Virus genome (UHGV): UHGV-0308106
Source: a virus
Direction: 5' to 3' (one strand)
DNA: 55,105 bases
Shown here one piece after another: positions 15,263-48,893 of this stretch (position 1 is its first letter; the number at the start of each line of letters is the position of its first letter). The notes under the pieces were generated by a model. That model made no database searches, was not told the DNA's origin, and saw only the letters and a list, made by a program, of their open reading frames with translations. The translations under genes were made by a program, and so were the position numbers.

Positions 15263-16045
15263 ATGAACCTTGAAAACACAGTGAAATACCACTTCGCTAA
15301 ATCCACACTGATTAGCGATTCTCCGCGCGCTACCGCCTCCGATTCACTGACCGGTACCGACATAATGGCTGCCATGGGCATGACGCAGGAACGCGCCGCA
15401 ATGGGTTACAGCGCCTTCCTCGGCAAGATGGGCATAAGCAATAACGACCGGGATCGGGCGATCGGTCTGCTGGCTGAGTACGCGATGACAAAATGCGACA
15501 AGGTTGCCGCACTGCGTAAGCTCGGTGCCGCGGTTAAACCTCAGGTGATGCACCAGTTGGCCACCTTCGCTTTTGAGGACTATTCCCGCAGCGCTGCCAG
15601 CGTGAAGCAGTGCGATTGTTGTGACGGTCAGGGCTTCATTGAGGCTGACGTGTTTACCAATAAATTCCGTAAGCCAGAAGGGAAAATGACCGTGTCCGGG
15701 ATGGTGAAGGTCAAAGAATCCATCAAAGTGCTATGCAAAAAGTGTAATGGCTCTGGTGTGGTTAGTGCTTCTTGCAGTGATTGCCATGGGCGCGGCAAGG
15801 CAGTGAACCAGGCTCTTACTGAGAAACAGGGCGTTCCTGTTCTGGCTGACTGTAAGCGCTGCGGAGGGCGTGGGTATGAACGACTTCCGTCGACTGAAGC
15901 CTATGCTGCTGTATGCCAGATTACTGACGCCATTAGCCTGGACACCTGGAAAAAGTCTGTTAAGCCATTCTACGACCTGCTGATCACGAAATTTGATATC
16001 GAAGAGTCCTGGGCCGAAAAACAGCTTAAGCAGATAACGCGGTAA
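15263..16045 (+). CDS. late-gene antitermination protein Q-like
   Basis: 260-aa ORF after rusA and before lysis genes; multiple CxxC pairs (CDCCDGQG, CKKCNGSG, CSDCHGRG, CKRCGGRG). Confidence 0.6.
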   Translation: MNLENTVKYHFAKSTLISDSPRATASDSLTGTDIMAAMGMTQERAAMGYSAFLGKMGISNNDRDRAIGLLAEYAMTKCDKVAALRKLGAAVKPQVMHQLATFAFEDYSRSAASVKQCDCCDGQGFIEADVFTNKFRKPEGKMTVSGMVKVKESIKVLCKKCNGSGVVSASCSDCHGRGKAVNQALTEKQGVPVLADCKRCGGRGYERLPSTEAYAAVCQITDAISLDTWKKSVKPFYDLLITKFDIEESWAEKQLKQITR

Positions 16046-19875: not shown

Positions 19876-20349
19876 ATGGCTGCATTAAAACCTGATGTGA
19901 AAGCCTTCATCATTCAGTCGCTTGCGTGCTATGACACGCCGACGCAGGTGGTTGAGGCTGTCCAAAAAGAATTCGGGATCAAGATCACCCGCCAGCAGGC
20001 TGAATCTCACGACCCCACGAAGGCCAGCGGTAAGACGCTCGCCAAAAAGTGGATCGAGATGTTCCACGCTACGCGCGAACGGTTCCTGACCGAAACCAGC
20101 GACATTCCGATCGCGAACAAATCCTATCGCCTCCGCGTGCTTGACCGCATGGCAACCAAAACCGAGGGGATGAAAAACTTCTCCCTGACGGCGCAGCTGA
20201 TTGAACAGGCCGCGAAAGAGGTTGGCGACGCTTACACCAATAAGCTGAAGGTTGAAAGCACTGGCAAGGATGGCGGCCCGATCAAGACCGAGACGACCAA
20301 CCTCACCGCAGATCAGGCCGCAGAGATTTACCGCAAGATGATGGGGTGA
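19876..20349 (+). CDS. putative terminase small subunit
   Basis: 157-aa ORF upstream of large terminase; paralog at 37662-38135. Confidence 0.5.
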   Translation: MAALKPDVKAFIIQSLACYDTPTQVVEAVQKEFGIKITRQQAESHDPTKASGKTLAKKWIEMFHATRERFLTETSDIPIANKSYRLRVLDRMATKTEGMKNFSLTAQLIEQAAKEVGDAYTNKLKVESTGKDGGPIKTETTNLTADQAAEIYRKMMG

Positions 20350-20374
20350 TAGCCGCATGTTGCGGCTATGGATT

Positions 20375-20587
20375 CTAGGCTTGTTTTGGTCGAGTAATAC
20401 GGCCAAGAGCTTTAATTGCAGCGACTTTGACGTTGTGATTTAGATCCGAAGATAAATCAAGTAAGCGATTTACATGAGCTGGCGTTGCTGAAGCACTCTC
20501 GCCGAGAGCATAAATTGCAGACAATTTTACTTCGTTGTTAAGGTCGTTGGTTAATTCCAACAACTTAGCGCTAACTGCTGGTGTCAT
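20375..20587 (-). CDS. HEAT-repeat-like small protein (antisense moron)
   Basis: Two repeats DLNNEVKLSAIYALGE and DLNHNVKVAAIKALGR; GGAGG SD before ATG at 20587; AT-rich; track ORF extends to 20635 via TTG. Confidence 0.45.
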   Translation of the reverse strand: MTPAVSAKLLELTNDLNNEVKLSAIYALGESASATPAHVNRLLDLSSDLNHNVKVAAIKALGRITRPKQA

Positions 20588-20658
20588 AAAACCTCCTGTA
20601 ATTGGTACATAAACAATATCAACTTTGTTACGCAAAAACTCAATGCCTGGAATTGTTT

Positions 20659-22281
20659 ATGCCTCTGCCGTTTGAATTCGATTTCAGAAACCCTGATTAC
20701 CAGATGGTTTTTGAATGGCGGATGGAGCGCTTACAGCGCATTCGCCAGAACCCTGAAATGCTGCCAGCACTAAAGCAGTTTTACCGCACCAACCCGGCAC
20801 AGTTCATCATCGACTGGGGTATGACTACTGACCCGCGTAACATCGATTATGGCCTGCCGGTCACAATCCCTTTTCTGCTGTTCCCGAAACAGGAAGAGTG
20901 GATTCACTGGATCATTGAGCGGCGCGAACGACTGGAGAACGGCATCACCGAAAAGAGCCGCGAAATGGGGCTCAGTTGGACCGCGATCGGGCTGGCCTGC
21001 TCGCTTTGTCTCTTCAACAAAGAAATGGTTATCGGTTTCGGCTCCCGTAAAGAGGAATACGTCGACAGCACCGGTGACCCGAAGGCGCTGTTCTGGAAGG
21101 CGCGAAAGTTCGTGGAAACACTGCCCATCGAGTTTCGTGGTTCGTGGGACGAGAAGAAGCATGCGCCGTATATGCGCGTTGAGTTTCCAGATACTGGCGC
21201 GGTTATCAAAGGCGAGGCTGGCGACAATATCGGACGTGGTGACCGTACCACGCTCTACCTGGTGGATGAAGCTGCATTCCTCCAGCGTCCTCTGTTGATT
21301 GATGCGGCGCTGTCGCAAACCACCCGTTGCCGTATTGACCTGAGCTCGGTTAATGGCATGGCGAACCCGTTCGCGCAGAAGCGCCACGGCGGAAAAATAC
21401 CAGTATTCACGTTCCACTGGCGAGATGACCCGCGCAAGGATGAAGAGTGGTATCGCAGGGAGTGCGAGAAAATCGACAATCCGGTGGTGGTGGCGCAGGA
21501 ACTTGACCTGAACTACAGCGCATCTGCGGAAGGCGTCCTGATCCCGTCCGACTGGGTACAGGCTGCCGTCGACGCGCATATCAAACTTGGTATTCAGCCA
21601 ACGGGCAAGCGACTGGGCGCGATGGACGTCGCCGACGAAGGCCGGGACAAAAATGCCTTTTCGACCCGTCACGGCTTCCTTCTGGAGAACGTGCGTGAAT
21701 GGTCCGGCGTTGGCAGCGACATTTACCAGTCTGTTGAGAAGGTCTTCGGCTTTTGCGAACAGGACAACCTCGAAGAGTTTCGCTTCGACGAGGACGGCCT
21801 GGGTGCTGGCGTTCGCGGCGATGCGCGCGCCATCAACGAACTGCGTTACGCAGCGCGCCGACCGTCAATACTCGCCACACCGTTTCGTGGTAGCGGCGCG
21901 GTATTTGATCCGGACGATGAAGCGGTGCGCGGGGACAACGGACAGGCCGCACGCCTGAACAAGGACTTCTTCGCCAACGCCAAGGCCCAGAGCTGGTGGT
22001 GGCTACGCAAGCTTTTCCAGAACACCTATCGCGCCGTGGTTGAGGGCATGGCCTACAACCCGGACGAAATCATCTCAATCAGCAGCGCCATGGCGAGCAA
22101 AGACAAACTCATCATTGAGCTGTCGCAGCCGACCTACTCCATTAATGGCGTGGGGAAAATCGTTGTTGATAAACAGCCTGATGGCACCAAGTCGCCGAAC
22201 CTCGCCGACTCGGTGATGATCAGCTACGCGCCAATGAATTCAGCCCTGAACATCTGGGAGCTGCTAGGGAGACAGGCCTGA
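20659..22281 (+). CDS. terminase large subunit
   Basis: About 540-aa from ATG 20659; ATPase and nuclease-type motifs ([18 protein letters not shown]); followed by portal. Confidence 0.85.
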
Positions 22282-25619: not shown

Positions 25620-25833
25620 TCCAATGACTGCATATCTGTACCTTATGCAACTAATATCTATTAATCAGTGCGTTATCGTTCGGAATCATACTGCGTTACT
25701 GGCCTGAACCATAAAAATGACACTCCGAACATGTGCGGATTTATTCGCCGGATTTCGCTTTGATTCGGTACGTGAGGGACTAGAGCGAGAATCATGCGCC
25801 GTTTGCATTACATGGTAGCCAGAGAGGTGTTGA

Positions 25834-27063
25834 ATGATTGTTAGGCCACTAACTAACGTCGAAGTGAAAAGCGCGAAGGCACAGGGCAAGGATTTCAGTT
25901 TGCACGATGGTTTCGGTTTGTTGCTTTACATCACAAGCCGGGGCGGTAAGTCATGGCGTTTTCGGTATGTACACCCGGTAACGAAGAAGAGACAAACCTA
26001 TACCATTGGAAGATACCCGGAGTTTACTTTGTCCGAAGCGAGGGAGGAACGTTCGAAACTGCGCCGTATGGTAGCGCGGGGGATAGATCCGAACGAAGTC
26101 AAAAAAGATACCAGGAATGAACAGCGTAAAATGTACGCGCAGTCATTTCAGGCCGTTGCCGATGAATGGCTAAAAATCAAGATTAAAGAAGGTGCGAGAA
26201 GCAACACGCTTGAATCGCACAATGTGACGTTGAAGCATCTTTCCACGATTTTTAGGCATACCACAGTACATAAAATAAACGCAGCCGATACTATTCAGGC
26301 TTTTAAACCTTTCAGGGAAAGGCCATCAACGCTTACGAAAATGGTTATTACCATCAACGCCATAATGGATTATGCGGTAAATATTGGGGTTATTGAGCAC
26401 AACCCACTATCGAAAATTGGTAAAGCATTCCCGGCTGAAAAAAACGAACCAAGAGCGACTTTACAGAAAGAGCGGTTGCCAGAATTTTTAAGCGCATGGA
26501 ACGAGTTGAGCTTATGGGAGCCATCAAAGCTGGCATTATTATTTCAGATCATTACGATGGTCCGACCTTCGGAAGCTGGCGGCGCTCTCTGGAATGAGAT
26601 TGATTTTGATAATTCAATCTGGCAAATCCCTGCAAGCCGGATGAAAGGAAAGCGCCCCCACGTAGTCCCATTATCGAGCCAGGCTATAAACGTGCTTAAA
26701 GAGGCCGAAAAGTGGAAGCGCTGCGATTATGTTTTCCCCTCATGGCGAAAAGAAAATAAGCCGATCTCACGATGTGCGACTCAGGCCGGAATACACAAAA
26801 CGTCGTTTAAAGGAATGATTGTTCCTCATGGGTTCAGGGCGTTGGCATCTACAGTTTTAAATGACGAGGGGTTCAACCCTGATGTGATTGAGGCTGCACT
26901 CGCTCACAAAAGCGCCGATGCGATTCGAAATGTTTATAACCGTAGCGACTATCTGGAAAAACGCCGGGTTTTAATGCAATGGTGGGGGGACTTTATCGAG
27001 GCCGCAGAGCGTGGAGAGATACTGGAGACCAGCGGCGATAAGGGCTTAAGGCTGGTTGTGTAG
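25834..27063 (+). CDS. int: tyrosine integrase (P4-type) of nested element
   Basis: 409-aa ORF; N-terminal arm-binding-like GKSWRFRYV; catalytic domain (HGFRALAST, AALAHKSADAIRNVYNR). Confidence 0.85.
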   Translation: MIVRPLTNVEVKSAKAQGKDFSLHDGFGLLLYITSRGGKSWRFRYVHPVTKKRQTYTIGRYPEFTLSEAREERSKLRRMVARGIDPNEVKKDTRNEQRKMYAQSFQAVADEWLKIKIKEGARSNTLESHNVTLKHLSTIFRHTTVHKINAADTIQAFKPFRERPSTLTKMVITINAIMDYAVNIGVIEHNPLSKIGKAFPAEKNEPRATLQKERLPEFLSAWNELSLWEPSKLALLFQIITMVRPSEAGGALWNEIDFDNSIWQIPASRMKGKRPHVVPLSSQAINVLKEAEKWKRCDYVFPSWRKENKPISRCATQAGIHKTSFKGMIVPHGFRALASTVLNDEGFNPDVIEAALAHKSADAIRNVYNRSDYLEKRRVLMQWWGDFIEAAERGEILETSGDKGLRLVV

Positions 27064-27104
27064 GGCATATCCATTTTTGGATAATTATGATTTCAAACGG
27101 GAAT

Positions 27105-27129
27105 AGCTGGCTTTAAGCCAGCTTTTTTT
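27105..27129 (+). terminator. intrinsic terminator after integrase
   Basis: agctggc-tttaa-gccagct hairpin followed by tttttt. Confidence 0.55.
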
Positions 27130-27206
27130 ATGCCCAAAGCTAACCGGAATGCGTTTTTTTTTATTCAAATCATATATAATCATATCGAATATATACGGAG
27201 GTTTTT

Positions 27207-27419
27207 ATGTCTATAAGTGGCGGTGATATTCTGCTAAAAGGTGAAGTGAAAGCGCGTTTACGTTATCGCTCAGACTCGTCATTCTACGAGTTTCTAAAAG
27301 ACGAGAAAAACGGCTTTCCAATGCCTTTTAAAGTCGGTGGGCGTAACTGCTGGTATGAAGATGAAGTAGATGCCTGGATAAGTAAACAAAGCGAGAAGCG
27401 CGGGATCTGCACATCATGA
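27207..27419 (+). CDS. AlpA-family transcriptional regulator
   Basis: 70-aa ORF; GGAGG SD; short HTH protein (FPMPFKVGGRNCWYEDEVDAWI) adjacent to integrase. Confidence 0.65.
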   Translation: MSISGGDILLKGEVKARLRYRSDSSFYEFLKDEKNGFPMPFKVGGRNCWYEDEVDAWISKQSEKRGICTS

Positions 27420-27558
27420 ATGTTTGCAGATTTGGGAAAGAGGGCTTGCTAACGGCTATCCGGGCAAGCCCTTTTTATTGTCAGTGGTGGGGATCTGTAA
27501 CTTACGGCCACCAGCGCCGGTAATCACCTTCTGGCTGGTGGCTTCACTGGCATGGCTA

Positions 27559-27918
27559 TTACGCTGCCGCATCATCTGAATTGAATTCAATGTGAATTCG
27601 GTCATAAGGCAGCACGATTTTTTCGCCGTCTTTGTCCAGAACGCCGCCGTTAAGCAGTGACTGAACATCGTTATAAACACCGCGAAAATCACGGTTAACA
27701 ATGCGTGATAGTTCGCGGATTGATACGGCTTGCGCTCCCTCCATCGCTTTGATGATCTGCCAGCGGTTAGGGGCAAGCATAGTTTTAGCCAGTTGTTCTA
27801 CAGTGGGAAAAATCAGTTCGGAACCGATGAAATCCCCGTTCATTGCGCGGGAGGCGTCGGACATTGCCACCCGGAAAGCATCATCAACGGTCATTACTCT
27901 GACGGTCAGCACTCGCAT
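27559..27918 (-). CDS. winged-HTH protein (antitoxin/regulator-like)
   Basis: 119-aa ORF, GGAGG SD, 4-bp gap after upstream 93-aa gene; HTH-like AVSIRELSRIVNRDFRGVYNDV. Confidence 0.5.
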   Translation of the reverse strand: MRVLTVRVMTVDDAFRVAMSDASRAMNGDFIGSELIFPTVEQLAKTMLAPNRWQIIKAMEGAQAVSIRELSRIVNRDFRGVYNDVQSLLNGGVLDKDGEKIVLPYDRIHIEFNSDDAAA

Positions 27919-27922
27919 GGTA

Positions 27923-28204
27923 TTACCTCCTCAACAGGTTTATGTCAGCCTGAAAGCTGGCGATCAGGTTCTCAATGGTGGTGAATGTCACCGGATATTC
28001 CCGATCATGGATGTGTTTGTGGTCGCCTTTGCCACGTTCGTTGTCGTAACGCATGACGCACTCGCCATCTACGATGTAGGCCAGACTGTACTTGTATTGG
28101 TGCTGGCTACCTAAAATTGCCGGGTCTACTTCCAGAATGCGGATCGAGGCGAAAGCGTTATCAGCTATCTGGATACGGCGGTTCATCAACTCAACAGCGG
28201 GCAT
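27923..28204 (-). CDS. small protein (toxin-like partner, family not recognised)
   Basis: 93-aa ORF, AAGGAG SD, operator palindromes immediately upstream. Confidence 0.45.
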   Translation of the reverse strand: MPAVELMNRRIQIADNAFASIRILEVDPAILGSQHQYKYSLAYIVDGECVMRYDNERGKGDHKHIHDREYPVTFTTIENLIASFQADINLLRR

Positions 28205-28220
28205 TGGCTTATCTCCTTGT

Positions 28221-28270
28221 TGATGTAAATAATAACATCACAAACGAATGATGTAAATGATTACATCATT
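28221..28270. promoter_or_regulatory. inverted-repeat operators upstream of two-gene cassette
   Basis: tgatgt-aaataata-acatca (28221-28240) and aatgatgtaa-atga-ttacatcatt (28247-28270). Confidence 0.45.
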
Positions 28271-28412
28271 GCGGGTAAGTTACCGATGGCATGAACGGTT
28301 CGCTGCTGGTGGCTCTCGATCTCCTGAAAGCTCAGGATATTGCCGGGCATGATTTTAATCGGCGGACTTTTCGGCCGATTGAATACGGGCAGTTCGCTCC
28401 CTGTGTATCGGC

Positions 28413-28552
28413 TTCGTTTCTGGATGATTCGCGTTTCGTTTCTGGTGAATTCGCATTCGCAATTTGTCCGCGAAGCCTTATCAGGCCTGATTTGAGCGGT
28501 GCTCTCTCTTTGCGAATTCGCAGTTCCATTTCGCACTTTGATTCGCAGTTTT
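28413..28552. repeat. cluster of palindromic GAATTCGC/GATTCGC motifs
   Basis: Tandem 20-mers ttcgtttctggatgattcgc (28413-28432) and ttcgtttctggtgaattcgc (28435-28454); further gcgaattcgca and gattcgca copies to 28552; overlapping ORFs look non-coding. Confidence 0.4.
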
Positions 28553-28713
28553 CAAATGTTCCCATTCCGGGGACACGGACGATTAGACAGGTGTTACAAA
28601 CGTTGGTGGTGAAATATCTTCTTGCGCTGGCGGGCACGGTGTGGTTATGATTATTTCGCACCTCACAAAACGGGTGCCGGGCGTGAGAACCCGGATAAGG
28701 TCAAAGGCGACAA

Positions 28714-28737
28714 CAGACGCCTATCGCGTCTTTTTTT
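28714..28737 (+). terminator. intrinsic terminator in leader upstream of icd-like gene
   Basis: agacgc-ctatc-gcgtct stem followed by tttttttt. Confidence 0.4.
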
Positions 28738-28931
28738 TGTCGCAATGTCAGTACCCCCATATGTAGCGGCGCAGATCCGCGCACAGAATCAATGGTGGCT
28801 CTGGCAGGGCAGCTTTCGGGCTGGCCGGTTCCCTTTGACGCCGGTATTCTCACCCCTGTCAGTGTCACCACCCTTTAGAGCGTGAGAACTCAGGTGGTGG
28901 CTCCTTAAATTAGTCAAAGGAGATCATCATC

Positions 28932-29129
28932 ATGATGACTATCCCTACCCTCGCTCAAACAAAATTCACCTGGCGCTTTCTCGCGCTGAATCGCCACGAT
29001 AAAAAAGCCAAACCTTGCCGTCTGTCCGTTGAGGCTGCGACCGAACGCGAAGCCCGCCGCATCCTTGCGCCGCACTTTATTTTGTCTCTGGCCGCACGTC
29101 TGCCAGTGCCGGAGGTGCGTCATGTTTAA
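28932..29129 (+). CDS. Icd-like small protein (P4 family)
   Basis: 65-aa; KFTWRFLALNRHD...RLSVEAATEREARRILAPHFILSLAARLP resembles Icd/Ash proteins as recalled. Confidence 0.45.
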   Translation: MMTIPTLAQTKFTWRFLALNRHDKKAKPCRLSVEAATEREARRILAPHFILSLAARLPVPEVRHV

Positions 29130-30000
29130 CCTCCAGACACTGACAGCTAAAGCCCGTGAGCTGCGCGGCAACGTCGTTAAAGCGGCGAGCACAAAGGGAA
29201 GTCGCACCATGACTCCTGTCTATGACCGTGACGAGCAGCGCAAGCTACGCGAGCGCATCCAGCAGACACAGCCCGATTGGGTGTTGCTCTGGTGGGATAT
29301 TGCGACCGTAACCGGCTGGCGTACCAGCGACGTTTGCAACCTGCGCTATTCCTGCGTCAATTGGGAAACGGGGCAGGCGACAATTATCGTTGCCAAGCAG
29401 ACCAAAGCCGCCGAAGCGCGGGCAACCCGCAAAGGTATTGAAATTGTGCGCCAGCAGCGCAAGGACGCCGCGCGGCTCGCCGCTGACCATATCGCCTACA
29501 TGAAGTGGGATAGTATCGGTTGTGACGAACTGGCCGCCGATATGAACGACGAGGAACAGGCGATTGTGTTCGGGCTGGTGGCAAAGGCTGACGTCAAGCA
29601 CGACACCAAACAGTTACCGCCCGGCATTATCAAGCGGCTGCGTGACCGTCAGGATCGGAATCTGGTGGAGGACGACCTGGTATTTTCACGCTCTCAAATC
29701 GAAAGTAACCGTTGTCAACGTCTGGAAGGTAGCGTTACTCGCCAAACCATCTGGCGCAAACTTCATGGCGTCATGGCGTGGTTTACCCGTTTCATTAACG
29801 CTAAATTGCGCCTGAGCGCGTACTCAAGCCGAAAAATAGCAGCCTTTAATCTTATGTCCGCAGGTGGCGAACAGGGATTATTGGTGGCTTCTGAAATGCT
29901 GGGGCATAGCAACCCGGCGATAACTCGCACTTACCTTCAATTAGGCAGCAAAGCCGCCGCTATCCAGTCCCGTTTAGCAATGGAGGTGTGCCATGCGTAA
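29122..30000 (+). CDS. tyrosine recombinase-like protein (catalytic domain only)
   Basis: 292-aa from ATG 29122 (GGAGG SD); WDIATVTGWRTSDVCNL and C-terminal LGHSNPAITRTYLQ; no N-terminal core-binding domain. Confidence 0.55.
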   Translation: MFNLQTLTAKARELRGNVVKAASTKGSRTMTPVYDRDEQRKLRERIQQTQPDWVLLWWDIATVTGWRTSDVCNLRYSCVNWETGQATIIVAKQTKAAEARATRKGIEIVRQQRKDAARLAADHIAYMKWDSIGCDELAADMNDEEQAIVFGLVAKADVKHDTKQLPPGIIKRLRDRQDRNLVEDDLVFSRSQIESNRCQRLEGSVTRQTIWRKLHGVMAWFTRFINAKLRLSAYSSRKIAAFNLMSAGGEQGLLVASEMLGHSNPAITRTYLQLGSKAAAIQSRLAMEVCHA

Positions 30001-30172
30001 TCTCTTTCATATCACTGGCTACGCCGTCAATAAACGCGGCCTGACAGTCGGTTTTAGCTATCTCATCGACGCCGAGGACGCCATGCAGGCAAAAGTTAAT
30101 GCCATTGCTGAGGCGAAAGACGATGAACTCACCCACGTATCTATTGCCCGTATTCTGGAGGTGGCAGCATGA
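29993..30172 (+). CDS. hypothetical small protein
   Basis: 59-aa ORF not in track; GGAGG SD; coupled to neighbours. Confidence 0.35.
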   Translation: MRNLFHITGYAVNKRGLTVGFSYLIDAEDAMQAKVNAIAEAKDDELTHVSIARILEVAA

Positions 30173-30381
30173 GCAAAGTATCCCTGGCCGATTCAACCTG
30201 CCGTATCCAACAGGCGCAGGAAGTCCTGTCTCTCTGGCTTGAGGCGACGAATAAAAACGATAGCGGCACGGCTAAATTAATCGGCGCAATCATTTCCCTT
30301 CTGGATGGTATCCCCGAATTGATGGATTCAGTAGAGGATGAATTGGCTGGCATGGACTTAAAAGCGATGGATAAAGCATGA
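30169..30381 (+). CDS. hypothetical protein
   Basis: 70-aa ORF, ATGA coupling on both sides. Confidence 0.4.
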   Translation: MSKVSLADSTCRIQQAQEVLSLWLEATNKNDSGTAKLIGAIISLLDGIPELMDSVEDELAGMDLKAMDKA

Positions 30382-31004
30382 GCAACGTAGAGAAATTCAC
30401 ACCGGGAAATGCCGACTTATTACACGCCGAAGCCACACCGCACGGCGTAAACATCATGACCCGCAATGATGCCGGGATGTATGAGCATGTAGCCATTATC
30501 ACCTATGAGAGCGCTGTAAGCCGTCTGGATGCGGGAGAGTACGACGATACGCCAGATATCGGCTACGCCATTCATTTTGCCGTTGCTGATGGCGGGGCGC
30601 GTGGCTGGTTCGACTTTACCGCGCAGCATGAAGTAACCATGTGGCGCTGGCTGATTGCTGCGACGTTCGTTTCTGAGATGAAGCGCGAAAACGGCACAAC
30701 CTCCGTCACGGAGGCTGACGGCACAACATCGCAGGTGGCGATTTACTCCAATGGTAATGCGGGCATGGTGATTTACCCGTTTGCTGAACGGCTGGCGATG
30801 GCGAACAACATCGAGGGCGCAATGATTGAGCGATACGGCGTCGAACAGGGTACGGAAAAAGCCATTGTGTTTTATCAGGCCATGCTGGATACGGAGCGCG
30901 GCGAGCTTACCCCGTTCGGACGTGAAACGCTGGCAGAGCTACACGATCACTTCATTGCTGATCTGGATGAAAACGGCTGGCCTGAAATGCCAGCGGCGCA
31001 CTGA
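30378..31004 (+). CDS. hypothetical protein
   Basis: 208-aa ORF upstream of primase in same operon. Confidence 0.45.
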   Translation: MSNVEKFTPGNADLLHAEATPHGVNIMTRNDAGMYEHVAIITYESAVSRLDAGEYDDTPDIGYAIHFAVADGGARGWFDFTAQHEVTMWRWLIAATFVSEMKRENGTTSVTEADGTTSQVAIYSNGNAGMVIYPFAERLAMANNIEGAMIERYGVEQGTEKAIVFYQAMLDTERGELTPFGRETLAELHDHFIADLDENGWPEMPAAH

Positions 31005-31016
31005 GGGAGCGACACA

Positions 31017-33797
31017 ATGCGTAATATCGACCTTATCCGCGAAGTGACCAGCGCCGCAGCAGGGCGCTGGCCTTATGTGCTGGCTGGGTTGTCTATCGAC
31101 GTGCCTGATTCATCGCGCCGCCATTCTCCATGCCCTGCATGTGGTGGAAAAGACCGTTTCAGATTCGACGACAACGGGCGCGGTAGCTTTATCTGCAACC
31201 AGTGTGGCGCTGGTGACGGGCTGGATTTAATCAAGCGGGTTAACAACTGCGACACTACGGAGGCGGCACAGCTTGCCGCTGACGTGCTGGGTATTGATTA
31301 CCGGGCAGCGCAATCCGACCCGGTGGCAGCGAGCCATATAAGGGAGCAACTGGAAGCTGACCGCCAGCAGCGTGAGCAGGAGCGCCAGAAACAGGCAGCA
31401 GGGGACGCAGAGCAGCGAAGGGCTACGTTTGCCCGTCTGTATGCCGGAATGCGCCAGAGTGCCACACAGGGCGAATCTGATTACCTGCAATCAAAAGGGC
31501 TGACCGGGTTTAACTATCCGGTTATGCCTGATGGTTCGTTATTGCTGGAGCTGGTGGACGAATCCGGCGCAGTGGCAGCAGCGCAAACCATTACACCGCA
31601 GGGAGAGAAGCGACTCCTGACAGGTTCAGCAAAGCGCGGGGCATATCACGCCGTAAACGCGCCAGAATCGCCGCAGAGCGTTTTAATTGCCGAGGGGCTG
31701 GCGACGGCCCTTTCAGTTCACCTGATGCGCCCGGACGCGCTGGCAGTGGCAGCAATTGACGCGGGCAACCTGCTACCCGTTGCCGAAGTGATGCGCCGGA
31801 AGTACCCACAGGCACAAATCATCATTGCCGCAGATAACGACCAGATGGGCGAAAGTGACGGAATTAAAGGAGTGAAAGTTAACACTGGCAAGGAGGCCGC
31901 AGAGAAAGCCGCGAAAGCCGTTTCTGGCTGGGTTTCCATGCCACCAGTGGACTATAAAGCGGACTGGAACGACTACCACCAGCAATACGGCCTCGAAGCG
32001 GCCACAGCAGCATTTAACGACTCAATGTATCAACCGGAGGGTAAGAAAGTGGGTGCGACACTGACAGCTATCGACGGCGGCAAGAAAAAACTTGGTATCG
32101 ACGACGATCTGAAACCGCGAGTAGAGAGCCGTGCGGATGGCATTCACTGGATCACCCCGAAAGTGGACAAAGACACAGGAGAAATTATCAATACCGAGGC
32201 GTGGCTATGCTCTCCGCTGGAGATTGCTGGTGCGGGGAGTGATAACGCCAGACAGCGCTTTCTGATCCTGCGTTGGGACGTCCCCGGCAACCGGGGGCAA
32301 GTTACCCGTGCGCTTCCATGGGAGGACATTGGCGACCGTGAGGGATGGCGCACGCTGAAAAACGGCGGTGTCAGTGTGACAACCAAACCATCGTTGCGGG
32401 CAATTCTGGCCGACTGGCTGCAGCGAACTGGTAGCGGCAAGGAATGGCAGATCAGCCACACCACAGGCTGGCACAACGGGGCGTACATCATGCCGGATGG
32501 TGATGTTATTGGTGAGCCAGAGATACCGCTGTTATTCAGTGGTCGGAGTGCGGCGGCTGGTGGCTATACCGTCAGTGGAACGCCGGAAAGCTGGCGTGAT
32601 TCGGTGGCGCGTCTTGCGCTGGGAAACCCGTCAATGATGCTGGGCGTTGCTGCTGCGCTTTCTGCGCCGCTGATCGGGCTTGTTGGCGCTGACGGGTTCG
32701 GCGTGCATCTTTTCGAGCAGTCCAGCGCAGGGAAGACAACCACCGCCAACATTGCCAGCAGTTTATACGGTGAACCGGATGCCTTGCGCCTTACCTGGTA
32801 CGGTACAGCGCTGGGTATCGCCAACGAAGCGGAAGCGCATAACGACAGCCTGTTACCGCTGGATGAAGTGGGGCAGGGCAGTAGCGCCAAAGACGTTGCT
32901 ACGTCTGCTTACACGCTGTTTAACGGTGCCGGAAAGCTACAGGGGGCCAAGGAGGGCGGCAACCGTGAGTTAAAGCGCTGGCGCACCGTGGCGATCAGTA
33001 CCGGGGAAATGGACATTGAGACGTTTCTTTCTGCTGGTGGGCTGAAAGTTAAGGCCGGGCAACTGGTGCGATTGCTTAATTTACCGATGGAGAAATCAGT
33101 AACGCACCATGAGTACCAGAACGGGAAGCAACACGCCGACGCACTCAAAGAGGCTTACCAGACGAACCACGGAGCCGCAGGCCGTGAATGGATTAAATGG
33201 CTTGCAGGCCACCAGCAGGAGGCAAAACAAGCTGTCAGGGCGGCGCAAGAGCGCTGGCGCAGTCTTATCCCCGCTGATTATGGCGAACAGGTTCATCGTG
33301 TCGGTGAGCGGTTCGCCATTCTGGAGGCGGCGCTGGTGCTGGGGATGCCTGTCACTGGTTGGGGGGAGCAGGAAAGTCGGGACGCTATCCAGCATGGCTT
33401 TAATGCTTGGGTAAAAGAGTTTGGCACGGGGAACCGTGAGCATAAGCAGATCATCGAGCAGGCAGAGGCGTTTCTTAATGCCTACGGCATGAGCCGTTTC
33501 GCGCCGTTCCCGTATAGCCCGGCTGACATGCCGATCCGGGATTTAGCCGGATACCGTCAGAAAGGTGAGCATGACGAAAGCCCCGTAGTGTTCTACACCT
33601 TTCCGGCTGCGTTCGAAAAGGAGATAGCGCAGGGCTTTAATGCGAAACAGTTTGCCCGTGTGCTGGCCGGGGCTGGGGTACTGAAACCGCCAGCCAGCGG
33701 AAGGGGATATCAGCGTAAATCCCCGCGAATTGATGGACGCCAGATAAACGTTTATGTGCTCCAGCTACGACCCGACGAGATAGAGGGCGAAGAATAA
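31017..33797 (+). CDS. primase-helicase (P4 alpha-like)
   Basis: 926-aa; zinc ribbon CPACGG...CNQCG; TOPRIM-like AEGLATALSVH and IIAADNDQ; P-loop-like SSAGKTT. Confidence 0.9.
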   Translation: MRNIDLIREVTSAAAGRWPYVLAGLSIDVPDSSRRHSPCPACGGKDRFRFDDNGRGSFICNQCGAGDGLDLIKRVNNCDTTEAAQLAADVLGIDYRAAQSDPVAASHIREQLEADRQQREQERQKQAAGDAEQRRATFARLYAGMRQSATQGESDYLQSKGLTGFNYPVMPDGSLLLELVDESGAVAAAQTITPQGEKRLLTGSAKRGAYHAVNAPESPQSVLIAEGLATALSVHLMRPDALAVAAIDAGNLLPVAEVMRRKYPQAQIIIAADNDQMGESDGIKGVKVNTGKEAAEKAAKAVSGWVSMPPVDYKADWNDYHQQYGLEAATAAFNDSMYQPEGKKVGATLTAIDGGKKKLGIDDDLKPRVESRADGIHWITPKVDKDTGEIINTEAWLCSPLEIAGAGSDNARQRFLILRWDVPGNRGQVTRALPWEDIGDREGWRTLKNGGVSVTTKPSLRAILADWLQRTGSGKEWQISHTTGWHNGAYIMPDGDVIGEPEIPLLFSGRSAAAGGYTVSGTPESWRDSVARLALGNPSMMLGVAAALSAPLIGLVGADGFGVHLFEQSSAGKTTTANIASSLYGEPDALRLTWYGTALGIANEAEAHNDSLLPLDEVGQGSSAKDVATSAYTLFNGAGKLQGAKEGGNRELKRWRTVAISTGEMDIETFLSAGGLKVKAGQLVRLLNLPMEKSVTHHEYQNGKQHADALKEAYQTNHGAAGREWIKWLAGHQQEAKQAVRAAQERWRSLIPADYGEQVHRVGERFAILEAALVLGMPVTGWGEQESRDAIQHGFNAWVKEFGTGNREHKQIIEQAEAFLNAYGMSRFAPFPYSPADMPIRDLAGYRQKGEHDESPVVFYTFPAAFEKEIAQGFNAKQFARVLAGAGVLKPPASGRGYQRKSPRIDGRQINVYVLQLRPDEIEGEE

Positions 33798-33811
33798 AAC
33801 ACACATACGAG

Positions 33812-34104
33812 ATGTTTTTTTGTTGGTTCAGTTGGTTCAGTAACTATTTAATTAAGATAAGTATATGTATTTAATATATTTCTATACCCATAAGTGAACC
33901 AACACTGAACCAACAAATACCCATTTTGAACCAACAAATGCCGCTATTGAACCAACGCCCTTTTCTGGCTGGCCTGTAAATCTTTCCCACTGAACCAACA
34001 CGAAAATAGCGTTTGTTGGTTCAAAACAAGGCTTTGTTGGTTCACTCCTCAAGAAATAATCCTTACAAAACAACAATCTTTACAAATTGAACCAACTGAA
34101 CCAA
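33812..34104. repeat. iteron array / candidate origin of replication
   Basis: 12 copies of GAACCAAC in both orientations (e.g. 33812, 33821, 33886, 33897, 33918, 33939, 33982, 34005, 34026, 34079, 34088, 34097) flanking an AT-rich tract 33830-33880. Confidence 0.65.
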
Positions 34105-34397
34105 CTGAACCAACATGTTTTTGTTTATCTATAGAGTTTTTTCGGAGAGTAATTACGAATTTGGAGGGGCATCGCCTAAGCGACAGTATGCGGAAACGGC
34201 AACTTTGCGGAGCGGAAAAGAAAAAGCCCGCGCTGGAGAGGCGAGGGCTTTTGTTAACCATGTTTATGCAATCACACAATGGTGGATCACCGTCATAGTA
34301 CCACGTCGATTTATCATTTCAATGTACGCAATGATGTTTACTAATATTGCAATTTATGCAATGATCAGAATTTAAACAACGCAAAAGGTTATGAACA

Positions 34398-34961
34398 ATG
34401 AAACAGATAACCAATGTTAATCTGGAAAGTGATAACGCTGGTGGTACAGTCGAGGTGACTTACTCCGATGATACGTTCGAAAGGCTGACCTGTTCGCTGC
34501 CTGTGGCTCTCGTCATTGCGAACCTTGCAACGACGCTTAAGCAGGAACGTGCAACACGCATTGCAACCGGCGACCGCCTGCGCCGGATGTATACCCGCGA
34601 TAGTGACATGATTACCCGCAGCGGCAGCGGCGCTTCTACGACCTCCACCGCGCCAACGTCAATGGACGCTGAATTTATGCGCCTGGTACGCGCTGTAGCA
34701 CCAAAGTATGACAACGCCCTTCCTGATACCGATCCTCGCCTTGTTGCGCTTGATGTGCTGCGTTACGCACCCGCTGAGGCATTCAGTGCGGTACACCCGA
34801 CCCCGCTATCAGAGATTCAGCTTGATCAGGCTATCGACGTTCTGGAACAGGTTGGCGACTACATGCGAGTTAACAACGTTTCACCGAAGATTCTCACCAC
34901 AGGCGACGCCATTCGCAGCATTAACACCGACAACGCCAGTTTCTGGCATCGCACGAAGTAA
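34398..34961 (+). CDS. hypothetical protein with scaffold-like C-terminal motif
   Basis: 187-aa; C-terminus TTGDAIRSINTDNASFWHRTK resembles helper 24387-25619 C-terminus. Confidence 0.5.
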   Translation: MKQITNVNLESDNAGGTVEVTYSDDTFERLTCSLPVALVIANLATTLKQERATRIATGDRLRRMYTRDSDMITRSGSGASTTSTAPTSMDAEFMRLVRAVAPKYDNALPDTDPRLVALDVLRYAPAEAFSAVHPTPLSEIQLDQAIDVLEQVGDYMRVNNVSPKILTTGDAIRSINTDNASFWHRTK

Positions 34962-34967
34962 GGAGCA

Positions 34968-35162
34968 ATGAGCATGGCTATTTATGACCCGAAATTAGCA
35001 GCAGGAAACCCGCAAAGCGCCGGGCGTAAACTCTTTGGCCGTGAACAGGCCGAGCAATTGCGGATGCGTAACAACTTCAACAACGAATGCCGCAATCTGG
35101 AAAAAGTCAACGAAGCGAATGCAAAGTTCTGGAGTGAACAGGATGAAAAAGCCAAACGTTAA
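34968..35162 (+). CDS. hypothetical small protein
   Basis: 64-aa; contains NAKFW near C-terminus. Confidence 0.4.
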   Translation: MSMAIYDPKLAAGNPQSAGRKLFGREQAEQLRMRNNFNNECRNLEKVNEANAKFWSEQDEKAKR

Positions 35163-35310
35163 GCCGGTATTACTCTCTGGCGACCAGTTCGCCGCAATCT
35201 GCAAGATCCAGGAGCGCGAACGCCAGCGCTCCGATATTGGCGTAGCGCCGTCTGTCCATCAAATTGCCCGTGGGCTGGTGGCGAAAGCGCTGGCATCAAT
35301 TCAGGAATAA
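35143..35310 (+). CDS. hypothetical small protein
   Basis: 55-aa from ATG 35143 with GGAG SD. Confidence 0.3.
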   Translation: MKKPNVKPVLLSGDQFAAICKIQERERQRSDIGVAPSVHQIARGLVAKALASIQE

Positions 35311-35315
35311 CGACT

Positions 35316-36383
35316 ATGTCATATAACTGGATGCGCCATTTCGAGCTACAGCTCATCGATGAGAATGGCAAAGGAATTAGCCTTAGTGATTTCAAAGTTA
35401 CCTTTGATATAGAGCGTAACGATAACAAATGGCCAGCTGTTGCGACGGTCAAGATCTACAACCTTTCACCAACTACTCAGAACCGTATTATGCAACGTGA
35501 GTTTGCCAAAATTGTGTTGATAGCGGGGTATGATGGTCGTGCGCAGGATGTAAGGGCAAGTGATGTGGGGATTGCACGTGAAATATCAGCAAGCGAAGTG
35601 GGCCAGGCTAACGGCGCAAACTACGGAGTCATTTTCAGCGGTGATATCCGCTTCACTGTGACCGGAAAAGATAACCCTGTCGATTCATGGGTACAGGTGC
35701 AGGCTTGTGACTCTGTGGAGGCGTTTACCAGCGCATTTATCAACACCACTATCAGCAAAGGCTACACCACAGAAGATATTTATGTTGAGCTTATGAAAAG
35801 GCTGGAACCTTACGGCATTTCTCGCGGTATTGTTCCTGAATTCCCGGCAACGGTATTTCCTCGCGGTCGAGCCCTCTTTGGCTATGTCCATAACTATCTC
35901 GATGAAGTGGCCGCGCAGTGCAAAGCCACTTGGCAATTCAACTATGGAAAAGTCGATATTGTTCCCAGAGACAAGGCCACTCATGAAGCTGTGGTTCTCA
36001 ACGCTAATACCGGGCTTATCGGTATGCCTCAGCAGACCATCGGTGCGGGTGTGAATGTCAAATGCCTGATTAACTCACGGATTCACCTGAACGGGCTTAT
36101 CCAACTGGATCAGGCTTCGGTATATCGTAGCGCCTTATCTGCGGATCAAATTGCCCAAGCTGGTGGGCCAATTTCGGTGGAAAGCCAAAACGGAAACCTT
36201 GTCACTACTGGATTAACGCAGAGTCCGGCGAGCATTGCTACCGATGGTATCTATAAGGTTCGGTATATCAGTTACACGGGCGACACGCGCGGTCAAGCGT
36301 GGTATATGGATCTGGCGTGTGAGGCTCGCGGGAATTCTGATTTATTTTCAAGTTCATTTATGAATAAGCAGAGTGAAGAATGA
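35316..36383 (+). CDS. baseplate hub-like protein (paralog of 47472-48536)
   Basis: 355-aa; about 70 percent identical by eye to helper hub-like protein (MSYNWMRHFELQLID vs MSLNWMRHFELQLLD). Confidence 0.5.
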   Translation: MSYNWMRHFELQLIDENGKGISLSDFKVTFDIERNDNKWPAVATVKIYNLSPTTQNRIMQREFAKIVLIAGYDGRAQDVRASDVGIAREISASEVGQANGANYGVIFSGDIRFTVTGKDNPVDSWVQVQACDSVEAFTSAFINTTISKGYTTEDIYVELMKRLEPYGISRGIVPEFPATVFPRGRALFGYVHNYLDEVAAQCKATWQFNYGKVDIVPRDKATHEAVVLNANTGLIGMPQQTIGAGVNVKCLINSRIHLNGLIQLDQASVYRSALSADQIAQAGGPISVESQNGNLVTTGLTQSPASIATDGIYKVRYISYTGDTRGQAWYMDLACEARGNSDLFSSSFMNKQSEE

Positions 36384-36724
36384 AGAAGATTATTTTACTG
36401 ATTGGTTTATTGGGCGCATCTGGAAGTCATGCTGCGCAGGTTATTACCATGCAGTGCGGAAACTTTCGCTTTGAGATGATAGAAAACTCGATGGCGAGAA
36501 TTAATGGTGAGTATGTAACATCTCAGAAAATTACAGAGTTCGGACAGAACGGGGCAAAAGTAGAAATGACGCTTATGCCTGCCAGCGATGGGAATCTGTA
36601 TGGGTTTGAATACATCCATCCTGACGGTAGCAAAAAGCGCTGGCTGAATGTTGAGCTTATCCGCACCAATATGAATCAGGCGCGGATCATTGGCTCGTTT
36701 GATTGTAAGCGCGTGAAGGGGTAA
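36380..36724 (+). CDS. secreted small protein (paralog of 48549-48893)
   Basis: 114-aa; signal peptide MKKIILLIGLLGASGSHA; two Cys; shared C-terminal DCRKVK. Confidence 0.5.
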   Translation: MKKIILLIGLLGASGSHAAQVITMQCGNFRFEMIENSMARINGEYVTSQKITEFGQNGAKVEMTLMPASDGNLYGFEYIHPDGSKKRWLNVELIRTNMNQARIIGSFDCKRVKG

Positions 36725-36732
36725 GGGGAATC

Positions 36733-37395
36733 ATGCCATTCATTCGACCCGCAAATGAGCAGGATGTAACACAGCTTGTTCAGGACAATGCTAAAGCATC
36801 TGTAACCAATGCGTTACCTGGCATTATTCGTTCGTTCGATCCCGAAACTGTCACCTGCGATGTTGATATAGCCATTACGGCAAGAATGACGAAGGCTGGC
36901 ACAATGGGTGAAGATTTCCAGTATGAGTCCGTCCGCTATCCGATTCTTAACGATTTGCCTGTGGTTTTTCCGCGCGGGGGCGGAGTTACGCTTACTTTCC
37001 CGGTTAAAGATGGTGATGAATGCCTCATCGTATTCTCTTCGCGTTCGATTGATTTCTGGTGGCAGAACGGCGGTGTGCAGGAGCGAGCTGATGGGCGTAT
37101 TTTAGATCTGTCTGATGCGTTCGTTATTCCTGGCCCCCAATCACAGGTAAAGAAGATATCCAATATCAGTACCAACGCTGCGCAGCTGCGTACAGATGAT
37201 GGAGCGGCATTTGTAGAGGTGTCCGCTGGTGGAGCCATTACTATTACCAGCTCTCAAATCACCCTTAACGGGCCCGTGCAGGTAAACGGAACGATCACTT
37301 CCACTGGCGACCAAACGGCCAACGGTATCAGCCAGATTAACCATACCCACGGCGGCGTACAATCAGGCGGCAGCAACACAGGAAAACCACAATGA
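36733..37395 (+). CDS. baseplate spike protein gpV-like (paralog of 49430-50170)
   Basis: 220-aa; PGIIRSFDPETVTC, FPRGGG, C-terminal HTHGGVQSGG; about 65 percent identical to helper gpV. Confidence 0.7.
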   Translation: MPFIRPANEQDVTQLVQDNAKASVTNALPGIIRSFDPETVTCDVDIAITARMTKAGTMGEDFQYESVRYPILNDLPVVFPRGGGVTLTFPVKDGDECLIVFSSRSIDFWWQNGGVQERADGRILDLSDAFVIPGPQSQVKKISNISTNAAQLRTDDGAAFVEVSAGGAITITSSQITLNGPVQVNGTITSTGDQTANGISQINHTHGGVQSGGSNTGKPQ

Positions 37396-37571
37396 GCAAT
37401 ATTGAAAAACTGAAACCAGAAGAAAGCGGATCCAGCCAGAATGGTAAGGTTCGTACCTGGCTGGATGATATCAACGGGCAGCCGGAACCAGATGGTATTG
37501 GCAGCTTCGGTGAGAGTGCGATCTGCGAAGAATCACGCACAGCGGAAACCATGCGAAATAACGTAGGGTGA
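37392..37571 (+). CDS. hypothetical small protein
   Basis: 59-aa ORF, ATGA overlap with gpV-like stop. Confidence 0.3.
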   Translation: MSNIEKLKPEESGSSQNGKVRTWLDDINGQPEPDGIGSFGESAICEESRTAETMRNNVG

Positions 37572-37599
37572 CGGTCAGATGACGTGATCTGTAACTTTA

Positions 37600-37647
37600 A
37601 GTAGCGGTGCAGGGGCAGAACTCAGCACGCTACTTTTATTTTCTTTG
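37600..37647 (+). terminator. intrinsic terminator upstream of orphan small-terminase paralog
   Basis: agtagcggtgc...gcacgctact stem with one bulge, followed by tttattttctttg. Confidence 0.5.
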
Positions 37648-37661
37648 TCAAAAGGTGAACA

Positions 37662-38135
37662 ATGGCGGCATTACCAACAATGGCTAAGGTTATGATTATT
37701 CAATCATTAGCTTGCTACGAACCCCCTTCCAGAATCGTTGAGCTTGTAAAACAAGATTTTGGCATCGTCGTTACCCGGCAGCAGATATCGGCCTACAACC
37801 CTGAAAATACAATGGCAAAAAATCTTAGCCAAAAATGGGTAGAACTCTTTAATCACACTCGCGCCCGCTTCCAGAGTGAAATATCCGAGATCCCTATCGC
37901 TAACAAAGCGTACCGGCTGCGTATGCTCGATCGCATGGCTAACCGTGCAGAGGCAATCAAGAATTACGCATTAACAGCGCAGCTTATTGAACAGGCCGCG
38001 AAAGAGTGCGGGGACGCTTACACCAACAAATTAAAGGTTGAAACAACGGGTAAAGATGGTGGTCCGATCAGAACGGAAACAACGAACTTAACCGCCGAAG
38101 AAGCCGGGGAGGCATACCGCAAATTTATGGGATAA
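37662..38135 (+). CDS. small terminase paralog (orphan)
   Basis: 157-aa; same length as 19876-20349 product, C-terminal half nearly identical; no large terminase or portal follows. Confidence 0.5.
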   Translation: MAALPTMAKVMIIQSLACYEPPSRIVELVKQDFGIVVTRQQISAYNPENTMAKNLSQKWVELFNHTRARFQSEISEIPIANKAYRLRMLDRMANRAEAIKNYALTAQLIEQAAKECGDAYTNKLKVETTGKDGGPIRTETTNLTAEEAGEAYRKFMG

Positions 38136-38366
38136 CCACCAGCGCCGTGACACGTCACACGCAAAAATAGCACCGCCCATTAATGGGCTGGTGGCACAGC
38201 TTGCATATTGAAATTCCCTGTAAATCTTACAGATCTGGTATTGAGTAACTTACCCCATTCAGCGCCATACATCACAGAGCAGCCTATGGACTACACACAA
38301 AATCAGGCTGCAAATAAATCCTTATATTTCAGTTGATTAAATAATAGCCTTGCATTCCTGTACCGG

Positions 38367-38849
38367 ATGCCTGTTGGCATTGCCGGGGCTATCTCTCGCC
38401 CGCAGGACTTAACCGTCGAACCGGTGATCCTTAAATCCGCTAACGCCTTCGCTGCCTATGGTCTGGCTGGCAAATATGACGCTGACGGCTTTTTCGTGCC
38501 GCTGGCGGACGGTGACACCGCCGACAAGGTGAAGGGGATCTACGTTCGTCCGTATCCGACCACATCGCAGCCAGACATGGTTCGCCAGGTGGGGACGGAT
38601 AAGAACTTCCCGGGTGACGCCATGAAGCGTGGCTACATGACCGTTAATCTCGGTTCTGATTTTGATGCCAGCACCATCAAAAAAGGCGACCCGGTATACG
38701 TTGTCGTCTCCACTGATGAATCCATAAAAGTGCCGCTGGGCGGCTTCATGTCCACGTCCGTCAGTGGCAAAAACGTGGCGCTGACCAACGCCGAATTCAC
38801 AGGGGCCGGTGACGCTAACGGCAATGTAGAAATCTCCTGGAAGATTTAA
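38367..38849 (+). CDS. head protein (decoration or scaffold-like), hypothetical
   Basis: 160-aa ORF directly upstream of major capsid gene. Confidence 0.4.
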   Translation: MPVGIAGAISRPQDLTVEPVILKSANAFAAYGLAGKYDADGFFVPLADGDTADKVKGIYVRPYPTTSQPDMVRQVGTDKNFPGDAMKRGYMTVNLGSDFDASTIKKGDPVYVVVSTDESIKVPLGGFMSTSVSGKNVALTNAEFTGAGDANGNVEISWKI

Positions 38850-48548: not shown

Positions 48549-48893
48549 GTGAGACATTTACTTTGCACTGTTACCGTGTTCGCGGTGCTTATATCAGCAC
48601 CCGCTTTTGCGGATCAGCAATGTGGTGATTTTAAAATCCATTGGGCAGATGATGGCTTAGCCAGAATCAATGGCGCAAAGCCAGAAATGCAAAAAATCAC
48701 CTTCCTGAAAAACAAAGGCGATTATAACAATATCAAGATGGATTGGCGTATGGCTACCGATCAGCCTGGAAGATGGGTTGGTCTTGAGTACATCAATCGA
48801 AACGGCAAAGCCATTCTCAACGCACAGTGGTTGCAAGCCAGCATGGATTCGCCGCGTCAGTATGCAACATACGACTGCCGAAAAGTAAAATAG
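48549..48893 (+). CDS. secreted small protein
   Basis: 114-aa; signal peptide MRHLLCTVTVFAVLISAPAFA; two Cys; C-terminal DCRKVK. Confidence 0.5.
   Translation: MRHLLCTVTVFAVLISAPAFADQQCGDFKIHWADDGLARINGAKPEMQKITFLKNKGDYNNIKMDWRMATDQPGRWVGLEYINRNGKAILNAQWLQASMDSPRQYATYDCRKVK

Follow-up and report, generated by a model that had tools for sequence, protein, structure and literature searches.

The prophage genome UHGV-0308106, a stretch of 55,105 nucleotides that we refer to as the window, contains a second gene of small-terminase type, terS2, which is the last gene of a 12.7 kb insertion. The insertion is a phage satellite lodged within the prophage that serves as its presumptive helper. We think it likely that terS2 is a functional small terminase of this satellite, and that it is most likely used to steer the helper packaging motor onto satellite DNA. 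The elements central to this argument are listed here by their coordinates in the window; SEN34 and Omnitron are the names of the myovirus group to which the helper structural genes belong.

25643..38364, + strand: the whole satellite, 12.7 kb, with attL at 25629-25642 and attR at 38351-38364.
37662..38135, + strand: terS2, an open reading frame (ORF) of 157 amino acids (aa), putative DUF2280 small-terminase paralog and final gene of the satellite.
19876..20349, + strand: the putative small terminase of the helper, a DUF2280 protein of 157 aa that shares 99% identity with its Omnitron counterpart, whose gene immediately precedes that for the large terminase.
20659..22281, + strand: the helper large terminase, SEN34 type, 540 aa, PHROG phrog_2, 95-100% identical to the SEN34 and Omnitron large terminases.

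Both DUF2280 genes encode proteins of 157 aa, as a preliminary description of this region had noted, and the two proteins align without gaps from end to end with identity at 101 of 157 positions (64%; BLASTP, E 7e-81). Pfam DUF2280 is matched by residues 1-102 of terS2 (133 bits) and of the helper copy (167 bits). Identity rises from 50% over aa 1-78 to 78.5% over aa 79-157, and reaches 84% over aa 103-157; the gradient between a divergent N-terminal and a conserved C-terminal half that was described earlier is therefore present, although 'near-identical' overstated the resemblance of the C-terminal halves. Most of the differences fall in the N-terminal three-helix part, and these helices of terS2 are closer to Pectobacterium phage copies than to those of its own helper, which argues for an alternative N-terminal class rather than a drifted copy of the helper gene. 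The two genes differ at 86 of their roughly 104 synonymous sites, and this saturation indicates that they are old paralogs and not the products of a recent duplication, their similarity being upheld by selection on the protein. One stretch stands out from the saturated alignment, with 29 of 30 nt identical between 37977-38006 in terS2 and 20191-20220 in the helper gene. It was considered as a shared cis site and dropped because its synonymous positions are not conserved in other satellite or phage copies, and a gene-conversion patch or chance is the more likely explanation.

Comparison of terS2 with copies from a satellite lineage inserted at tRNA-Thr gives 65.5 synonymous versus 7.5 non-synonymous differences, corresponding to a ratio of non-synonymous to synonymous divergence (dN/dS) of 0.015 at a dS of about 1.3; over the comparisons with this lineage dN/dS is 0.012-0.015 and dS is above 1.3. 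The gene is full length with its frame intact in all 11 satellite copies examined. Together, a dN/dS of about 0.015 and intact frames show that terS2 is under strong purifying selection, and the possibility of a pseudogene, raised in the preliminary description, is rejected. A scan of IMG/VR with the internal recombinase of the satellite, followed by marker mapping, yielded 13 composites (satellite plus interrupted prophage) at this attachment site, of which 11 have terS2, always as the last gene. There is no adjoining large terminase, again in agreement with what had been described: spike and hub genes lie upstream of terS2 and the helper cement gene downstream.

Three lines of evidence bear on the function of DUF2280, namely its genomic position, its replacement by other proteins, and the covariation of its C-terminal tail with the large terminase. 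Prophages of E. coli, Klebsiella and Pectobacterium have the DUF2280 gene between a phage metallopeptidase gene and the gene for a large terminase of 537-540 aa, and it is directly upstream of the large terminase in the helper of the window, in Omnitron and in the E. coli composites, terS2 being the orphan exception; at 16 further loci it overlaps a Terminase_6C or Terminase_3 gene. In SEN34 and in E. coli EC2001 the same slot, beside large terminases that are 95-98% identical, is filled by unrelated proteins of 205-209 aa annotated as small terminases. The SEN34 protein (209 aa) aligns with DUF2280 only over the last 17 aa, of which 13 are identical (TDLTTDQAAELYKKMMG versus TNLTADQAAEIYRKMMG), with a local score of 80 against 32 +/- 5 for shuffles and a DNA identity of just 37/54. 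Across 20 loci plus the helper copy of the window, DUF2280 tails fall into three types, each accompanied by one downstream terminase family: ...AAE(I/V)Y(R/K)KMMG with the SEN34-type terminase, ...EM(L/M)EDDDC with a 490-aa Terminase_6C protein, and ...SPDGSM.P.PT... with a Terminase_3 protein of 415-439 aa. terS2 ends in TNLTAEEAGEAYRKFMG, the SEN34-type tail that matches the terminase of its helper, and this tail is conserved in all satellite copies.

Slot position, replacement and tail covariation together lead us to conclude that DUF2280 proteins, a family of at least 1,505 members (E <= 1e-5), are likely small terminases, and that the tail acts as a docking piece for the large subunit. 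From the covariation we infer that terS2 is compatible with the helper large terminase, which is its predicted partner. The secondary structure predicted for terS2 starts with three helices, continues with three long ones and a beta-hairpin, and ends in a C-terminal helix, an arrangement that is usual for small terminases.

The window is a prophage with a lambda-like early region (integrase at 449, O and P replication genes, Q antiterminator at 15263..16045) and structural genes of the SEN34/Omnitron group (DUF2280, large terminase, portal, MuF, DUF2213, cement, major capsid, sheath, tube, tape measure and baseplate). It matches Citrobacter phage Omnitron at 99.3% up to position 25648, and the match resumes at 95.7% from 38351, with 20 bp of phage sequence present at both junctions. 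These breaks and the 20-bp overlap identify the 12.7 kb between them as an insertion. The attL sequence is TGCATATCTGTACC and attR is TGCATTCCTGTACC, with the common core CTGTACC, and both are identical in 11 independent composites. The insertion lies in codons 2-7 of the cement gene, with the satellite oriented like the late operon.

38367..38849, + strand: the helper cement (minor capsid) gene, Pfam Phage_cement, truncated at its 5' end by the insertion.

Lost from this gene are its ribosome-binding site and first seven codons (MTAYLYR); in SEN34 and Omnitron the cement gene starts with ATGACTGCATATCTGTACCGGATG, 4 nt after DUF2213. By its position within its presumptive helper prophage, then, the satellite is helper-embedded. 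No sequenced phage record contains the insert, and the terS2 cassette is present in no plasmid or phage record. In a metagenomic contig (L020, ~18200-18281) the right end of the satellite runs straight into its left end to give an attP of ...GCATTCCTGTACCTTATGCAACTAATATC..., as would be expected if the satellite were circularised or tandemly repeated in that sample. Elsewhere in the helper, a 308-bp piece (20351-20658) that is missing from Omnitron separates the small and large terminase genes; its opposite strand encodes a HEAT-repeat ORF of 86 aa (20375..20635), and the piece occurs at the same place in five complete E. coli genomes, beside either type of small terminase.

The following features were identified within the satellite.

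25834..27063, + strand: integrase of P4 type with arm-binding domain (Pfam Arm-DNA-bind_3, Phage_integrase, Phage_int_M).
27207..27419, + strand: AlpA-like regulator or excisionase (Pfam Phage_AlpA, E 4e-4, just under the cut-off; relatives are annotated as AlpA family).
27559-28204, - strand: TumE toxin / HVO_A0114 pair, the sole reverse-strand pair in the satellite.
28658..28875, + strand: P4-like immunity RNA region, with isrK at 28658-28736 and C4 at 28788-28875 (Rfam, 61.3 and 78.8 bits, both above gathering scores).
31017..33797, + strand: primase-helicase, 926 aa (Pfam zinc ribbon, Toprim, DUF927).
35316..37395, + strand: copies of three helper tail-tip genes, encoding a hub (355 aa), a 114-aa protein and a central spike (220 aa).

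All satellite genes are on the + strand except the TumE/HVO_A0114 pair, which is found in many, not all, relatives. The isrK and C4 RNAs are followed by an Icd-like and a recombinase-like gene, as in the P4-type arrangement of RNA immunity. A second tyrosine-recombinase-like gene comes between the TumE/HVO_A0114 pair and the primase-helicase gene; several ORFs of the satellite have no database match. No large terminase, portal, capsid or lysis gene is present in 25643..38364, and this absence of genes for heads or a large terminase, together with the integrase, AlpA, immunity RNAs and primase-helicase, identifies the element as a phage satellite. Its final section runs in the order hub, 114-aa protein, spike, a 59-aa ORF and terS2. 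By tblastn the hub is 63% identical to the helper gene at 47472, the 114-aa protein, which has a signal peptide, 34% to that at 48549, and the spike 51% to that at 49430; Pfam and PHROGs matches back the identity of hub and spike. The same trio is found in related satellites at tRNA sites. For a satellite to carry replacement tail-tip genes is unusual.

A plausible course of events is that, after induction, the satellite would excise at CTGTACC, restoring the cement gene, and would replicate with its own primase-helicase. The terS2 protein would then form its own ring and bind a satellite pac site through its N-terminal domain, with its C-terminal tail docking the helper large terminase, and satellite concatemers would be packaged by the headful into heads built by the helper. 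With helper genomes of 40.7-41.9 kb and a satellite of 12.7 kb, or 30% of that length, a 42-kb head would take about 3.3 satellite genomes unless the capsid were resized as well; a single head should not have space for the composite, which is about 130% of the helper in length. The preliminary description had proposed that the paralog redirects the helper terminase to the DNA of the element, and the residence of terS2 on a separate mobile element, its helper-type tail and the purifying selection acting on it all point in this direction.

Two elements flank terS2.

37599..37649, + strand: conserved hairpin and U-tract in the terS2 leader, terminator-like, with the hairpin at 37599-37635.
38147..38158, + strand: inverted repeat GTGACACGTCAC, 12 nt past the terS2 stop codon.

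The leader hairpin is followed by UUUUAUUUUCUUU, ahead of the terS2 ribosome-binding site. A 71-nt piece of the leader has a predicted folding energy of -19.6 kcal/mol (z = -2.9 versus shuffles), and all 10 related elements compared retain the hairpin, two of them with a compensatory change of one pair from UA to CG. A simple terminator scan made no call at 37599-37635, the loop of the hairpin being beyond the limit of the scan. The earlier statement that terS2 is preceded by a terminator is thus borne out by fold and conservation but not by the scan, and we describe the structure as a predicted, terminator-like one. Homology between terS2 cassettes begins about 75 nt before the ATG, hairpin included, whatever cargo lies upstream (hub and spike genes, a pair encoding a 197-aa and an M41-like protein, or IS5). 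A late regulatory element common to satellite and helper was considered, but the leader block has no second copy in the helper.

Since there is no room for a promoter between the leader hairpin and the start codon, terS2 would have to be transcribed through the terminator-like structure. The hairpin may therefore keep terS2 silent until terminator-resistant transcription arrives, the obvious candidate reader being helper Q-modified polymerase that would enter from the late promoter and pass through the co-oriented satellite; the same cis effect has been proposed for helper-embedded satellites (PMC10111431). A small second hairpin is predicted at 37636-37661, where the end of the U-tract pairs with the terS2 ribosome-binding site. 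It reads CCUUU GUCA AAAGG in most copies, is predicted in 10/10 aligned copies, and could mask terS2 translation.

The inverted repeat GTGACACGTCAC is conserved after terS2 in relatives, with one mismatch in the tRNA-Thr lineage. Three exact copies with unrelated flanks are present in the window, a number that is reached in none of 100 shuffles; the other two are at 24086-24097 in the helper MuF gene (reverse strand) and at 51190-51201 in a helper baseplate gene. Third-position differences in terS2 between satellite lineages number 23/78 over the first 78 codons versus 41/79 over the last 79 (Fisher p 0.006). The low third-position divergence of the 5' half, the conserved leader hairpin and GTGACACGTCAC are all hints to the location of a pac site, and we regard them as candidates. 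A motif upstream of terS2, TGACGTG, seemingly related to the downstream palindrome, was dropped as it is not conserved in relatives.

Close relatives of the satellite occupy the same site in the E. coli complete genomes ECONIH5, ET791, ABWA45 and EC2001, and strain G5 has a relative at tRNA-Thr with a different integrase and the same hub/spike/terS2 end. A protein 98% identical to terS2 represents 86 member sequences, and in 9 of the 10 contexts shown it is encoded just before the cement and capsid genes, the remaining one being at a chromosomal look-alike site. Among species-representative genomes a satellite-type copy is present only in Apirhabdus apintestini, before the cement and capsid genes. 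In this genome, which is labelled as another genus (L102; CP138906, 2566406-2586876), hub, spike and a terS2 at 98% are followed by cement and capsid genes at 96-98%.

Several observations weigh against terS2 being the small terminase of the satellite. DUF2280 is not annotated as a terminase, being a domain of unknown function in Pfam and of 'unknown function' in PHROGs (phrog_546); NCBIfam has no match for DUF2280 proteins, and searches of PDB-chain sequences with terS2 and with a 52-sequence DUF2280 profile returned nothing relevant. The structure model of terS2 is weak, and fold searches with it gave no significant match. No promoter-like site was found in 37000-38500, and from the sequence no pac site was identified beyond the candidates given above. 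Two composites with the satellite at the same site, L003 and L019, are without terS2, which is evidently dispensable for persistence. Two others, L006 and L020, have an intact terS2 in prophages whose large terminase is of Terminase_3 type and whose small terminase, of 251 aa, has a different tail. If tails and terminases pair as in the covariation, terS2 should be unable to work with this motor; the resident terminase is thus of mismatched type in 2/11 terS2-bearing copies. We rejected a strict link between the presence of terS2 and the type of the resident terminase, as two of three Terminase_3 composites keep the gene and the third (L003) is without it. However, the attachment site is conserved across the phage group whatever the terminase module, and the copies in L006 and L020 may be stranded or awaiting another helper. 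In the two composites without terS2 the stretch between GATGATGTG... and the attP arm is swapped for other short sequence (18800-19290 in L003, 18140-18180 in L019), and the L003 replacement includes a 62-aa ORF that is found downstream of terS2 in the tRNA-Thr lineage.

One alternative is that terS2 interferes with the helper by co-assembling with its small terminase, such that mixed rings lose recognition of the helper pac or gain recognition of that of the satellite. A single protein would then do the jobs that Staphylococcus aureus pathogenicity islands (SaPIs) split between a small terminase and Ppi, or that E. coli phage-inducible chromosomal islands (PICIs) give to Rpp. The 78.5% identity over aa 79-157, the part that holds the long helices and the beta-hairpin, would favour co-assembly, the Pfam and PHROGs scans of the satellite proteins revealed no Ppi-like or other dedicated inhibitor acting on the helper small terminase, and binding or retargeting of the helper small terminase is among the known strategies of satellites (PMC11417361). 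However, terS2 is 92-98% identical in satellites within prophages whose small terminase is not of the DUF2280 family (L007, L023, L006 and L020), and with an unrelated helper small terminase mixed rings are impossible there. Mixed rings are possible where the helper has DUF2280, and we view interference as an unlikely explanation of terS2.

Less probable again is that terS2 is a captured late gene that now serves as a DNA-binding regulator or in another non-packaging role, for example in the control of late genes of the satellite or the helper through a helix-turn-helix. DUF2280 has no experimentally assigned function, its N-terminal part is predicted to form three short helices, late zones with genes captured from the helper's late region are known from other embedded satellites (PMC10111431), and the GTGACACGTCAC repeat beside terS2 recurs in two helper late genes, all of which would suit a regulator. 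A pure regulator, though, would have no reason to retain a terminase-specific tail, yet the tail is kept in all satellite copies, and terS2 is full length and collinear with the DUF2280 copies that occupy the terminase slot. That terS2 is a decaying remnant of recombination between prophages, outside any satellite strategy, is very improbable: its loss from two element copies and the mismatched terminase beside some others would fit decay, but a dN/dS of 0.012-0.015 at a dS above 1.3, a frame intact in 11/11 copies, conserved leader and trailing sequences, and precise att sites with no recombination scar do not.

Use of terS2 as the satellite's own small terminase would correspond to the SaPI strategy, in which a satellite small terminase pairs with the helper motor and recognises the satellite pac (strategy iii in PMC11417361), and PICIs count small terminases, "responsible for redirecting the packaging", among their core components (PMC10085698). 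As in pac-type SaPIs, the satellite has a homolog of the helper small terminase and no large terminase of its own. It is unlike SaPIs in that the protein is of the DUF2280 family, the host is Gram-negative, the helper is a myovirus, and the satellite is inserted in the helper itself and not at a separate chromosomal site; its function, moreover, is read from its genes.

The helper-embedded PICIs (HE-PICIs) described by Tommasini, Mageeney and Williams (2023, PMC10111431) reside in lambda-type late genes at 14 sites, and have integrases of one clade and an attP with a doubled TGTATTGC motif; their model element lacks terS and is presumed to be a cos user (PMC10111431). The satellite resembles them in the order of its zones (integration, immunity RNA, replication, late), in a late zone with captured helper late genes, in off-target chromosomal copies, and in that the interrupted late gene would be restored by excision alone. 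In contrast to HE-PICIs, it interrupts the cement gene of a SEN34-like myovirus prophage at its very beginning, and, unlike their model element, it has a putative small terminase. The doubled TGTATTGC motif has no match near either end of the satellite, and the text of PMC10111431 and the supplements searched make no mention of DUF2280, DUF2213, cement or baseplate, or of CP026202 and CP022154, two of the genome accessions that carry the element.

Resemblances to P4 include a P4-type integrase with arm-binding domain, C4 and isrK immunity RNAs, a large primase-helicase, a size of about 12 kb (about 30% of the helper) and a myovirus helper. P4 is packaged via cos mimicry and is not known to have a small terminase. 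The satellite differs from P4 in having a primase that carries DUF927, and no homologs of Psu, Sid or Delta were found in the Pfam and PHROGs scans of the satellite proteins, which covered all but a few small ORFs. Rpp of E. coli cos-type PICIs and Gpi/GpsA/GpsB of the Vibrio PICI-like elements (PLE) are likewise satellite proteins that reprogram the helper packaging machinery, and bind the helper small or large terminase (PMC11417361), but they are not small-terminase homologs, whereas terS2 is a full-length small-terminase paralog.

The strategy is therefore one known from other satellites, and it is this satellite family and this terminase family that appear to be undescribed. A likely function is provided for DUF2280, and the last 17-25 residues would constitute a swappable docking peptide for the large terminase, a proposal that is testable and usable to engineer packaging specificity. 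The helpers known to harbour embedded satellites, hitherto lambda-like siphoviruses, would also come to include prophages of myovirus type in E. coli and its relatives. In a published PICI detection model tail genes count as 'forbidden' (PMC10085698); tools that forbid them, or that assume satellites to lie outside prophages, miss elements such as this, and prophage annotators would read the composite as one oversized phage.

More tentatively, these features may combine into an undescribed lineage of myovirus helper-embedded satellites, which would have its own small terminase behind a terminator passed by Q and would give the helper tail a new tip made of the satellite's hub, 114-aa protein and spike; we hold the combination as a whole to be possible though doubtful. 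If it is correct, satellite particles would differ from helper particles both in their content and in their cell-entry device, and sister lineages in other late genes would imply that the habit of targeting late genes arose outside the one described integrase clade.

The same satellite family, recognised by an internal recombinase 87-96% identical to that of the window, is found at other late-gene sites of related prophages, where it splits the major capsid gene (L024, L030, L032-L034, L038), follows the spike gene (L025, L027, L029) or follows the portal gene (L048). None of these satellites has DUF2280, and their integrases are only 44-64% identical to that of the satellite in the window.

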